Shown here: positions 23,520 to 57,468 of the stretch, piece after piece | How positions within the stretch are numbered: position 1 is the first letter of the stretch | How the letters are laid out: every line of letters begins with the position of its first letter | Sequence record: OP279344.1 | DNA length: 64,000 nt | Strand: one strand, 5' to 3' | Origin: Escherichia phage P1 | Made by a program: the position numbers and the translations under genes | The notes under the pieces: model-generated | The model's database searches: none | What the model was told of the DNA's origin: nothing | The model's input: only the letters and a program-made list of their open reading frames with translations

Positions 23520-23983
23520 TGCTTCAAATGCCAGATTTATTGTACTTCAATGGAAGTTGGCAAGAGTATATAGACGATGTATATGATGTTGTTAGAGAAG
23601 ATATTTTAATATCTAATATAACGTTTAAGGGTCTCCCTGTTCGATTACGTTATTCACCGGAATATAATGGGAAAGAATTCGGATTTTGGCATTTAGTATC
23701 AGAGGGAAAAATAGAAGAAGAACGTATACCCGATCTTGAACGGTGCAAGCGAATTCGCTGGATCGCGCACATGATAAGGAATTATAACCATTGCGATATA
23801 TCATGTTGGTCTGAAAGACGAGGACCAACTGAAGAGTGGGTAATCTGGAATGAGTGTGAAAACTACGTTGTTGTGCTATCCGCACGTAGAGACTATTGGC
23901 TTCTCAAAACAGCCTATGTTGTAACCTATGACAGTAAAATCAGAACACTCAAACAAAGCAGAAAAAGAGCACTTGGGACATAA
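23519..23983 (+). CDS. Hypothetical partner protein, about 154 aa, translationally coupled to the DUF3800 gene (rlfB position)
   Basis: TGATG stop/start overlap at 23517-23521 (ORF track starts at 23504); AT-rich; no recognisable motif. Confidence 0.45.
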   Translation: MLQMPDLLYFNGSWQEYIDDVYDVVREDILISNITFKGLPVRLRYSPEYNGKEFGFWHLVSEGKIEEERIPDLERCKRIRWIAHMIRNYNHCDISCWSERRGPTEEWVIWNECENYVVVLSARRDYWLLKTAYVVTYDSKIRTLKQSRKRALGT

Positions 23984-24148
23984 AAAGCTGAACCCGACAC
24001 ATATTGCTATGTATCGGGTTCGATCGCTCTTTCTACACATGGTAGATGAGTAATGCAAATCTAACCGATCTACTTTAGCTTTTCAATAGCTAGCTATAAC
24101 TTTCCGCACATATTCTTCTGATAATTCCGGGAGAGCGGTTGGGTTTTT

Positions 24149-40300: not shown

Positions 40301-40363
40301 TCTGTGTCTTGTAAGGGGGACACTCGAGGTGTAGCTCATGACGTTTTGGGTATATTGCTCTAA
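37322..40363 (+). CDS. dmt: Dmt bifunctional DNA methyltransferase: N-terminal C5-cytosine MTase interrupted by an intein + C-terminal Dam-like N6-adenine MTase
   Basis: C5 motifs I ([11 protein letters not shown]), IV (GGTPC...QAFSIAG, split), VI (ENVPG), VIII (QRRRRVF), [15 protein letters not shown]; Dam motifs [20 protein letters not shown]; GTG start overlapping the hrdC stop. Confidence 0.9.
37553..38575 (+). mobile_element. Intein (341 aa) with LAGLIDADG homing-endonuclease domain inside dmt
   Basis: Block A CFTAGHMV, block [15 protein letters not shown] and LQGYLDTDG, block G VVHN followed by Cys; excision rebuilds [12 protein letters not shown]. Confidence 0.85.
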
Positions 40364-40370
40364 TAAATTT
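40354..40370 (+). promoter_or_regulatory. Consensus C1 operator overlapping the dmt stop, with an overlapping inverted partial copy
   Basis: ATTGCTCTAATAAATTT, 17/17; followed by TTATTAGTG. Confidence 0.7.
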
Positions 40371-40544
40371 ATTAGTGTAATATCGCCTCAATGAATCGTG
40401 ATTTATAGAGCGATTTAGCTGTTAGCCGCGACAGGCGCGGCGGTAAGCATGGCTGGGCCTAGTCCTCCCAGACAAACCACCGAGTTGCCAGGTTGACCAT
40501 GCGCCTAAGTGGCAACGCCGAAGTGCGTTACGAGCTTCCAGTTT

Positions 40545-53350: not shown

Positions 53351-54048
53351 AGATTGCTTTAGTTCTTCGCTCTGGTGGTGACTATAACGCTTCCGATGTG
53401 CAGTGGCTGGTTAATCAACTGCCAAAAGACTATGAAATTATTTGCCTGACAGACCTGAAGTGTTTACATGTACCTGGCGTCAAAGTTATCCCATTGATCA
53501 ACCAGTGGCAAAAGTGCCGTGGCTGGTGGGCGAAAATCGAGTTGTTCCGACCGGATATAACCGATGATCTGTTCTATCTGGATTTGGACACGGTTATTGC
53601 CGGTGATATACGCCCAATCCTTGAGAATCCACCAACCAGCTTCACCATGCTTAGGGATTTTTACCATCCACAATATCGTGGTAGCGGTGCCCTGTGGATA
53701 CCAAATAGTGTTAAAGCGCATATCTGGAGTTCATTCTGGCAAGATCCGGAAGGTTGGATTTCTCGTTGTGTCACTACTGAGTGCTGGGGTGACCAGGGGT
53801 TCTTACGAAAGGTTATGGGCGATGATACACCAGCATTTCAGGATCTGTATCCAGGATGGTTTGTAAGTTACAAGGCCGATGTTGTGGAACCTGGTTCAAA
53901 ATATGCGAGCGCGCGTTACTCCAGGGGGAATGGGGCATTACCAAAAGACTGCCGAATAATCTTTTTCCACGGCAAACCGCGACCTCGCGAAGTGTCAGAG
54001 GATTGGCTTCCCCTTATCAGCTCATTTTTTGAGCGAGAATCAGAATAA
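53347..54048 (+). CDS. GT8-like glycosyltransferase, 233 aa
   Basis: YLDLDTV (DxD) and C-terminal FHGKPRP resembling the GT8 HxxGxxKPW motif; coupled to the phosphatase stop. Confidence 0.45.
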
Positions 54049-54049
54049 T

Positions 54050-54115
54050 ATTGCTCTAATAATTCCATATTTTTAAAACGTGATGTACACTCATCACGTT
54101 TTTTATTAGAGCAAT
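54050..54115. terminator. Bidirectional intrinsic terminator flanked by two inverted C1 operator copies
   Basis: ATTGCTCTAATAATTCC ... aaaacgtgatg-tacact-catcacgtttt ... TTTTATTAGAGCAAT. Confidence 0.6.
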
Positions 54116-54349
54116 CTACAAGGTGCACTATGTGGCCATTCCGACGGAAATATCACTACTGGCTGATCGCCTTTGTTACGCCGACCGGCGGTATCAGGCA
54201 TGTCATCACCAGGTATCGCAACAAGAGACTCACCTTAGCCAGAATTTTACAGGCTGCCATAGGTGAGGGACTGGATACAAATTGCGTAGTCCTTCCTCCT
54301 TCATACTTAGGAAAAATGACCGAAGCACAAGCTAATACGGAACTTTGAA

Positions 54350-55612
54350 ATGATCACTTCAGCACAAAACCAATCAATCGAAAATGTATCTATCCCGGAT
54401 GTCCTGAATGCCGGTATCCCGGCCATTATCCAGAACATCCGGGCCGCGCAACGCCGCGTTAGTTGTGATGACCTCACAGCACGTTTTTTTGATAATGCGG
54501 TTCAGTCAGCGGAGATGCTTCACGCACAGCTTATTGATGTTTATAACGCAGAAGCTGATAGCCATAACTCCCTGGTAGATGCAGCTGAAAATATGCAGTT
54601 GGATCTCGGTCTGAAGGGTAAAGAAATTGAAGAGCTTCAGCTGCAAATTGAACATTTGAAACGCCAGCAACAGGACGCGATCGACGATGCGACGCATGAT
54701 GCCAACCAGCGTGCTGATAATGCCGAACGTATAAGCATTGAGCTGGAAACAAAACTCAATGAAATGACCGCGATGGTTGAACTGCGGAACTCACAGATTT
54801 CAACGCTAAAATCTCAATATAAAGAGATCATGAAACTTGATCCTTTTAACCTTGAGAAACGCTATAACAAAGCTAAAAGCGAGCGACAGGAACTGCGTAA
54901 ACAGGTCGCCGACCTTAACCAACAGCTCAAAAAAACTATTAAAGATGCAAGCGAAGCGCGCGTGGCATTTGCTAATAAAAAAGCAGAGGTTACCGCGCTG
55001 GTTAATGAGAATGCCAAATTTGCGACGCTCAAGAAGGAAATGTATGGCATTACTGAGCGCCGTTTCCCTGCAAGCAAACTTCATCCGACGTTAGGGCAAA
55101 TCTCCTTCTTCCCGCGCCTCCTGGCTTATGGGATCTCATCGCCTAAAGAGTTCAATAACGAGCGTCCTTATATCGTTTCTAAGCTGGACTTTGCTTATCA
55201 GTTCTGCTGCGACATGGGCTATGCCATTGATATCCGAATCAACGAATGGTTGATGCCAAACTTCCAGCCGTTGGCAATTTTCCGCGAGTTCCAGCCGGAA
55301 GGTTGGGTAGAGTTCTTCCATGAATTGATCTGTAAAGAGATGGAAAGCCGCCGCCCGGAATTGGTCCGTCGAGTTGAGTGGGCGCAAGAGGTTATGTTGG
55401 CAGATGCAGAGCTGCCGTTCGAACCGGAATTCATTGATGATCTGGCAACTAAAGGGTTGCATACCCTGTTTGATGTGGTTACCCGCCGTCATGAGCAGTT
55501 GGTTGTCGAATTGGGTTTAGAGGAAACAGCGGCAAGAAGACTTCTCGATGTTTGTTATGCACGTAGCGATGCATGGGAAAAAGAGAACGGCGGCACTATT
55601 TACGTTCGCTGA
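54350..55612 (+). CDS. Coiled-coil protein, 420 aa (the 72-aa ORF at 54130-54348 precedes it)
   Basis: ORF track; heptad-rich central region. Confidence 0.35.
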   Translation: MITSAQNQSIENVSIPDVLNAGIPAIIQNIRAAQRRVSCDDLTARFFDNAVQSAEMLHAQLIDVYNAEADSHNSLVDAAENMQLDLGLKGKEIEELQLQIEHLKRQQQDAIDDATHDANQRADNAERISIELETKLNEMTAMVELRNSQISTLKSQYKEIMKLDPFNLEKRYNKAKSERQELRKQVADLNQQLKKTIKDASEARVAFANKKAEVTALVNENAKFATLKKEMYGITERRFPASKLHPTLGQISFFPRLLAYGISSPKEFNNERPYIVSKLDFAYQFCCDMGYAIDIRINEWLMPNFQPLAIFREFQPEGWVEFFHELICKEMESRRPELVRRVEWAQEVMLADAELPFEPEFIDDLATKGLHTLFDVVTRRHEQLVVELGLEETAARRLLDVCYARSDAWEKENGGTIYVR

Positions 55613-55684
55613 TAGTTACAGTGTCACTTTTAATGCTGGTGGAGTGCGCCCACCAGCATTTTTTTCGTCCAATGAGGAGGGCAT

Positions 55685-56191
55685 TTGAGTATTTTCAATA
55701 AACACGCACACCCGGAACGTCCGTACATCGTCATAGTAGATATTGATGGGACGATATCAGAGGCAACGGAAGACAGGCTGCATTTACTTCCACCACCTGG
55801 CAAAGGTGCATTAACAGAGCACTGGAACGAGTTTAACCTTGCCTGTGACACCGATACTCCCATCACTCCAGTTATTGATATGGTGCGCCAGTTATTTAAC
55901 GTTTACACGGTCTGGTTTGTAACCGGGCGCTGTGAGATCGCAAGGGATAAAACACGAGCCTGGCTGCGGAAGTACGTAACAAACGGGGCTGAGCCTTTGC
56001 TATCTATGCGTCCTGCCACCGATGACAGAAATGACGGCCCAGCAAAGATTGATCTCCTTAAGAAAATTGGTCTAAGTAAAATCGCGTTCGCGCTGGAAGA
56101 TAAGATTGAAGTGGCGCGTGTTTTCAGGAGGCACGGCGTGCTTACGTTAATGGTCAGGGAGTATGAAAATGCGCTTCTTCATCAACAATAA
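55685..56191 (+). CDS. HAD-superfamily phosphatase, 168 aa
   Basis: Motif I IVIVDIDGTIS (DxDGT). Confidence 0.6.
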   Translation: MSIFNKHAHPERPYIVIVDIDGTISEATEDRLHLLPPPGKGALTEHWNEFNLACDTDTPITPVIDMVRQLFNVYTVWFVTGRCEIARDKTRAWLRKYVTNGAEPLLSMRPATDDRNDGPAKIDLLKKIGLSKIAFALEDKIEVARVFRRHGVLTLMVREYENALLHQQ

Positions 56192-56207
56192 TTGCTCTAA
56201 TAAATCT
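56191..56207 (+). promoter_or_regulatory. C1 operator abutting the HAD phosphatase stop
   Basis: ATTGCTCTAATAAATCT, 16/17. Confidence 0.6.
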
Positions 56208-56385
56208 TGATTTTTAAAACAGAGAAAGTGAAAATAAAAACATGCCGCAAGGCGCGGCATGTTTCCAATCAATCACAGGAGCTGAAAATATGAACACGGC
56301 ATTCAAAATCATTATGGCCGCGATCTATTTCTGGCTGTTCTCTATCACTTTTGGCGGCATCGTCGCGCATGGGTAAGGGGGATGC

Positions 56386-57246: not shown

Positions 57247-57468
57247 ATGCAATCCATTAACTTCCGTACCGCGCGCGGCAACCTTTCTGAAGTGCTCAAC
57301 AATGTTGAAGCCGGGGAAGAGGTTGAAATCACCCGCAGAGGCCGTGAGCCAGCAGTAATTGTCAGCAAGGCTACTTTCGAAGCCTACAAAAAAGCGGCGC
57401 TGGATGCTGAATTTGCATCCCTGTTTGACACCCTGGACTCCACCAACAAGGAACTGGTTAACCGATAA
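57247..57468 (+). CDS. phd: Phd antitoxin, 73 aa
   Basis: [39 protein letters not shown]... recognised as P1 Phd; overlaps doc start. Confidence 0.95.

Follow-up and report, generated by a model that had tools for sequence, protein, structure and literature searches.

The stretch of DNA analysed here (the window) comprises 64,000 nt of Escherichia phage P1 (sequence record OP279344.1). Its region 53300-55700 is 100% identical to the Escherichia phage P1 records AF234172, AF234173 and NC_005856, and ~99% identical to P7, SJ46, RCS47 and other P1-like phages. The plus strand of this region carries pmgQ (53347-54048), a glycosyltransferase-like gene that is the last one of the upstream pmgN-pmgQ unit, followed by pmgR (54130-54348) and pmgS (54350-55612). 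The pmgR gene is essential for production of infectious virions; its deletion results in unjoined heads and tails (PMC9024508). According to the annotation of AF234172, the upstream unit has a C1-controlled promoter, PpmgN, and, further upstream, a late promoter, LPpmgL; C1 control of this operon is exerted via Oppp/Op83.

The 81 nt between pmgQ and pmgR, which separate two plus-strand gene blocks as a preliminary description of this DNA had said, are fully occupied. The pmgQ stop codon is followed by an operator that overlaps a −35 hexamer, by a T-rich spacer and by a hairpin with a candidate −10 hexamer in its loop; then come a U-run (which coincides with the 3′ end of a second operator and with the predicted start region), the rest of this operator, a Shine-Dalgarno sequence and the pmgR start codon.

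The two operators are inverted copies of a binding site for the phage repressor C1, and they lie where the preliminary description had placed them: operator a (ATTGCTCTAATAATTCC) at 54050-54066 on the plus strand, with the pmgQ stop codon TAA (54046-54048) located 1 nt 5′ of it, and operator b (ATTGCTCTAATAAAAAA) at 54099-54115 on the minus strand. With an offset of +28102 both map to sites annotated in AF234172 as binding sites of 'phage repressor C1', namely OpmgRa (former Op86a, plus strand), which 'controls expression of pmgR and pmgS', and OpmgRb (former Op86b, minus strand). The P7 record (AF503408) holds both sites as well, under the names Op(sht a/b). When compared with the 17-bp asymmetric consensus ATTGCTCTAATAAATTT, which we used as the test for C1 operators, each of the two sites matches at 14 of 17 positions; the first 13 nt of operators a and b are perfect reverse complements. 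Matches to the consensus with at most three mismatches occur 14 times in the window vs 0.30 expected, and none of 100 shuffled sequences reached this number. By the annotation of the record and by the consensus match, OpmgRa and OpmgRb are C1 operators. No pertinent papers came up when the literature was searched for 'Op86'. The gap between the operators is 32 bp, and their centres are 49 bp (~4.7 helical turns) apart, a spacing that would leave them facing different sides of the helix.

Between the operators AF234172 has a predicted sigma-70 promoter, PpmgR, with −35 TTGCTC (54051-54056) and −10 TAAAAC (54074-54079). This promoter, absent from the preliminary description, is the obvious reason for the flanking operators. 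An alternative −35 hexamer at 54063-54068, overlapping the 3′ end of operator a, reads TTCCAT in P1 and TTTACT, TTTTAA or TTGATT in relatives. The same interval contains the hairpin with an 11-bp stem that had been described earlier; it consists of the 5′ arm AAAACGTGATG (54075-54085, with the G+C core CGTGATG at 54079-54085), the loop TACACT (54086-54091), which we propose as the −10 hexamer of PpmgR, and the 3′ arm CATCACGTTTT (54092-54102). T-runs are present on both sides, T5 at 54070-54074 and T6 at 54099-54104; the latter, the putative U-tract of a plus-strand terminator, lies wholly within operator b. The whole element had been presented as a palindrome of ~66 bp: the length of 66 bp holds, while the palindrome is imperfect, with 12 nt (54063-54074) having no partner. 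Operator b, which would span positions ~+1 to +18 of the proposed transcript, is separated from pmgR by a short spacer (54116-54119) and by the Shine-Dalgarno sequence AAGGTG (54120-54125), all within 54116-54129.

The window as a whole is not colinear with AF234172: record positions exceed window positions by 28925 at 23960, by 28102 at 53300 and by 30799 at 57301. Exact matches to probes taken at 85.6, 86.4, 87.3 and 87.7 kb of the reference are missing from the window. The shifts in offset, together with the missing probes, indicate that the window is a mosaic or variant P1 genome. For the segment 40340-40620 the 100% matches listed were other P1 isolates (MH422554 and MH445380). Several sampled plasmid matches start at window position 53871, inside pmgQ (query position 172; 689 matching records), which suggests a recombination breakpoint inside pmgQ shared by a subset of P1-like plasmids.

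To follow the element in evolution we compared orthologous intergenic regions from ~80 P1-clade contigs, Cronobacter phage JK004 (71% DNA identity to P1), Salmonella plasmids and metagenomic or SRA contigs whose PmgS proteins are 53-71% identical to that of P1. With both operators included, the module is exactly 66 nt long in 20 of 21 distinct versions; the remaining version has one additional T. Both the operators and this geometry are directly observed, and the operators are kept in all relatives, down to 53% PmgS identity. Across the ~80 loci of the P1 clade (near-identical loci from an IMG/VR scan, showing micro-variation only) a single operator change was seen; a scan of genome contigs gave two near-identical loci. 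Beside the invariant operators, 4-5 nt at 54116-54119 are hypervariable across the P1-clade contigs, where they read CTAC, CTAT, ATAC, CCAA, TTAC, CCAT, CTGC, CAAA or TCAT. Given this hypervariability of the adjoining nucleotides, conservation of the operators has to be attributed to selection and not to a short divergence time.

The syntenic OpmgT site of the loci designated L087 and L095 likewise carries an operator of this type, and locus L096 has a C1-family repressor gene (PF27008). A tblastn search of plasmids with the diverged PmgS of L087 detected no close relatives of that lineage. In L098, whose PmgS is 27% identical and which was left out of the covariation set, the same intergenic position (2701-2753) holds an 18-bp inverted repeat of different sequence (CAAAAGATACTAATTTAT, 17 nt, ATAAATTAGTATCTTATG) without an inner hairpin; this repeat probably represents the operators of a diverged C1-type repressor.

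The P1 hairpin, with its 11-bp stem and 6-nt loop, has an RNA folding energy of −13.4 kcal/mol (z = −5.0), and none of 200 shuffled sequences folded as well. The core of the stem, with four G-C pairs, contributes −8.5 kcal/mol, the A-U extension bringing the value to −13.4. The sequence of the stem varies by lineage and its pairing is retained: the arms are AAAACGTGATG / CATCACGTTTT in P1, AAAACATGGTG / CACCATGTTTT in Salmonella, GAAGCATGGTG / CGCCATGTTTT in JK004, GGGCATGGTG / CACCATGCTT in L095 and AAGGTGTGGTG / CGCCACATCTT in L087, while L092 pairs in a shifted register (CGGCATG... / ...CATGCCG). In the structure-registered alignment 94.7% of cells are paired; when the partners are slid by one to three columns, pairing falls to 35-67%. 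Compensatory double changes are seen in 5 of the 11 pairs, and the observed covariation score was reached by none of 500 shuffles. The support for covariation comes from about six independent lineages. A search against Rfam gave no family match, the best hit being a chance miRNA (19.6 bits vs a gathering score of 211, E = 0.31).

The non-Watson-Crick cells are biased in a strand-specific manner. Overall, 19 of them are G·U vs 5 A·C, and in the diverged set the counts are 15 vs 2. The predicted folds are asymmetric in the same direction: −14.0 kcal/mol on the plus strand vs −5.8 on the minus strand in JK004, −16.3 vs −7.7 in L087, −19.1 vs −7.9 in L089 and −16.5 vs −11.0 in L092. Since G·U cells can pair in plus-strand RNA only, the hairpin acts as plus-strand RNA; the G·U bias, together with the asymmetry of folding, argues both against a palindrome that works at the DNA level (as a protein site or a cruciform) and against a function on the minus strand. 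One could still suppose that the inner palindrome acts as DNA, either by binding a dimeric protein or by forming a cruciform in which the −10 is single-stranded, given that it is centred on a −10-like hexamer and has A+T-rich flanks. We consider this extremely improbable, as the stem sequence changes with compensation and is not conserved, the G·T / A·C asymmetry means that the opposite strand would contain C·A mismatches, and the pairing register of L092 is shifted.

A role of this plus-strand hairpin in termination is suggested by its position and by its tail. It starts 27 nt after the pmgQ stop codon, and a T5-T6 run follows the stem directly on the 3′ side in five of six lineages. The d'Aubenton-Carafa discriminant (combined here with modern energy parameters, which makes its values no more than indicative) is positive on the plus strand in P1 (+10.7), JK004 (+11.6), Salmonella (+13.6), L092 (+28.4) and L095 (+15.9); it is −25.6 in L087, where the U-run has decayed. 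A standard terminator scan of the window did not call the hairpin because the stem extends into A/T pairs and the tail has too few T's; our own hairpin scan with the discriminant was used in its place. The three mismatches of operator b to the consensus (AAAAAA in place of AAATTT) arise from its overlap with the T6 run, which suggests that the same bases are constrained by both terminator and operator functions. On these features of the sequence, the plus-strand hairpin resembles a common terminator that serves the upstream genes and works in one direction.

The preliminary description had gone further and seen in the element a bidirectional terminator tuned by C1 bound at the flanking operators, possibly with DNA looping. 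In P1 the hairpin is indeed perfectly palindromic, with A4 preceding and T6 following it, both operators abut it, and C1 is capable of DNA looping at the c1 locus. The data on the minus strand do not bear out the bidirectional part of this reading. There the discriminant is negative in all six lineages (−18 to −75). The minus-strand tail of P1 (UUUUAAAAA) has UUUU and then A's, so that the T5 run at 54070-54074, though present as described, is not what termination on the minus strand needs; the minus-strand U-run is missing from four lineages (JK004, L092, L094 and L095). The G·U bias fits the plus strand only, and no minus-strand gene converges on the element. As for tuning by C1, the upstream operon is, by the annotation, itself repressed by C1, and C1 bound at operator a would stall the polymerase before it reaches the hairpin; with little upstream transcription left to modulate when C1 is present, this claim found no support, and any modulation of termination by C1 is unlikely to be of importance. 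The spacing of 49 bp, moreover, would put the two sites on different faces of the helix. Altogether, we regard a bidirectional, C1-tuned terminator as very unlikely.

Another function that the plus-strand hairpin might have is to stabilise the 3′ end of the pmgQ message or to provide a site for its processing by RNase. The L087/L089 lineage is a case in point, since its 11-bp hairpin is retained (−16 to −19 kcal/mol) and the U-run is gone (AUCUUGAUUAG), an indication that the conserved role of the hairpin may go beyond termination. Gene-level RNA-seq at 30 min is compatible with this possibility: the log fold changes are 11.66 for pmgQ, 10.81 for pmgR and 11.70 for pmgS, with no clear drop across the element (PMC8201110, Table S1), and such data neither prove nor exclude termination at the element. 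Against stabilisation or processing as the chief role is the T5-T6 run, kept in five of six lineages despite the three mismatches to the consensus that accompany it in operator b. Besides, a stem-loop at a 3′ end normally arises by termination. We therefore judge this alternative improbable, and a one-way terminator for pmgN-pmgQ is the function that we predict for the hairpin.

Three other terminator-like structures were noted in the window. A hairpin in the gap between pmgS and pap (55634-55658, plus strand; UGCUGGUGG...CCACCAGCA, −15.6 to −18.1 kcal/mol) is followed by T7 and is not annotated in AF234172; at 10 min the log fold change falls from 9.99 for pmgS to 8.45 for pap (PMC8201110). 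A G+C-rich palindromic hairpin (CATGCCGCAAGGCGCGGCATG, 56241-56261), located ~35 nt downstream of OpmgT (56191-56207), has a good T-run on the minus strand, where no gene is annotated; the record describes this region as resembling the flanks of E. coli hsd loci. The most stable terminator-like structure in the window is a hairpin with a perfect 14-bp stem within the rlfB coding region (23990-24021, minus strand; −21.6 kcal/mol), followed by CTTTTTAT.

Activity of a promoter at the pmgQ/pmgR boundary is directly visible in published RNA-seq data on P1vir infection, given as log fold changes (PMC8201110, Table S1). At 10 min in the wild-type host the values are 6.9-7.4 for pmgO-pmgQ, 9.0 for pmgR and 10.0 for pmgS; in the dksA host they are 6.1-6.6, 9.0 and 9.1, respectively (PMC8201110). 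At gene level, then, expression steps up at least 4-fold exactly at the pmgQ/pmgR boundary in both hosts at this time (PMC8201110). This step indicates early activity of a promoter located at the element, which is what control by C1 would lead one to expect in the absence of C1. CRISPRi roadblocks placed in pmgO-pmgQ were non-lethal even though pmgR is essential by deletion; this evidence is weak because the knock-down of pmgR itself was also missed. The genes pmgR and pmgS (54130-55612) and pmgT-pmgV (56386 onward) are labelled 'putative morphogenetic'. At 10 min their log fold changes of 9-10 are among the highest of all P1 genes, comparable with those of ant1 and cre, while true late genes have values of 3-5 (PMC8201110).

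To locate the core promoter we scanned nine sequences with a sigma-70 matrix (a simple PWM). In all nine, the best call has its −10 in the hairpin loop, the distance between its hexamers being within 16-18 bp. The score of this promoter is 7.0 in P1, whose version (TTCCAT/TACACT) is the weakest, and 9.6-11.0 in the relatives. The loop hexamer, TACACT in P1, is TATCAT or TATTAT in relatives, the pattern T-A-n-n-n-T being invariant. A likeness to the late-promoter box TTTTACTTT seen in relatives is absent in P1 and lies 15 nt, not 4-9 nt, from the −10; an Lpa-dependent late promoter was rejected upon comparison with the −22 boxes of LP26, LPpmgL, LPhot and LPpac.

The assignment in GenBank may of course be correct as it stands, with −35 TTGCTC and −10 TAAAAC, in which case the hairpin would be a by-product or a terminator only and its loop would have no role in the promoter. 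PpmgR is so annotated in AF234172; a −35 within the operator and a −10 at index 25 are found at most other P1 operators, OpmgT having the identical TAAAAC; and TAAAAC is kept in the Salmonella relatives. In JK004, L092 and L094, however, this hexamer is destroyed (TGAAGC / TGCGGC) while the operators and the loop hexamer are intact. TAAAAC also lacks the conserved final T. The geometry TTGCTC-17-TAAAAC is not among the four best calls in P1, and the identical combination scores 5.1 at OpmgT vs 7.0-11.0 for promoters with the loop hexamer. On balance, we think it unlikely that the GenBank assignment holds unchanged, and re-assignment of the PpmgR −10 to the loop hexamer TACACT is probable. P1 itself may nonetheless use the GenBank geometry, which is common to most P1 operators, or both. 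Transcription is predicted to start at ~54097-54099 from the loop hexamer and at ~54085-54088 from the GenBank promoter. Under either model the start would fall in or after the loop, so that pmgR mRNA would lack the 5′ arm and could not form the terminator.

Taken together, the observations are probably best explained by a C1-controlled promoter-operator of pmgR-pmgS(-pap) with an intrinsic plus-strand terminator of pmgN-pmgQ nested in it. In the prophage, one C1 monomer would occupy Op86a over the −35 region and a second one the inverted Op86b over ~+1 to +18, the two monomers clamping the core promoter from either side. Upon inactivation of C1, RNA polymerase with sigma-70 would start at or just after the hairpin, and the pmgR mRNA would escape termination; PpmgR would thus fire early in lytic growth. 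Transcripts arriving from pmgQ would contain both arms and could form the hairpin of 7-11 bp followed by U6, which would lead to a stop or to a protective stem-loop end. Such termination or capping inside the promoter would insulate the upstream and the pmgR units from each other.

The nesting might also have a function in its own right. We find it doubtful, though, that read-through from pmgQ and initiation at PpmgR are mechanically coupled through the position of the −10 in the terminator loop. If they are, termination inside the promoter could, for example, keep PpmgR from being occluded by (late) transcription that comes from upstream; another possibility is that C1 at operator b serves as a roadblock, i.e. 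as a second lock on read-through. A coupling of this kind would make the element a reusable design, an insulated and doubly clamped promoter, conserved across P1-like phage-plasmids.

P1 is a workhorse among phages, and its phage-plasmid relatives of the P1-like type contribute to the spread of resistance genes; the gene that the element serves first is one essential for infectious particles. The comparison presented here offers a cheap, testable correction to the transcription map of P1. The element is also a compact natural example of a terminator placed in a repressible promoter, which could aid annotation of P1-like genomes or serve as a part in synthetic biology. What we add is incremental. 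The Op86a/b operators on the pmgR promoter are already known and annotated; the additions are the nested, plus-strand-specific hairpin, the re-assignment of the −10 and the invariant length of 66 bp, and the 2004 P1 genome paper may already mention the hairpin.

The closest known counterpart is OpmgRa/OpmgRb with PpmgR as annotated in AF234172/NC_005856, which is the same DNA: both inverted 17-bp sites coincide, as do the genes that they control. In these records and in that of P7, however, the hairpin is not annotated as a terminator, and the −10 is placed at TAAAAC and not in the loop. The register of the element is shared with Olpa/Plpa (former Op94/P94; lpa, gene 10), where the operator occupies index 1-17, the −35 15-20 and, after a 16-nt spacer, the −10 (TATTAT) 37-42, with a score of 10.8; Plpa is the only promoter of its region listed in the record without the word 'predicted'. 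Unlike the element, Plpa has a single operator, with neither an inverted downstream operator nor a hairpin around the −10. The P1 bivalent operator (40354-40381 in the window) resembles the element in having two convergent C1 sites that form an incomplete palindrome over a promoter, but its sites overlap by 6 bp with centres 11 bp apart, whereas those of the element are 32 bp apart with centres separated by 49 bp. With intrinsic terminators the element shares a G+C-containing stem of 7-11 bp, a 6-nt loop, U6 and covariation of the stem; in contrast to the canonical ones, its stem is modest, it overlaps a promoter and an operator, and its U-run has been lost in one lineage.
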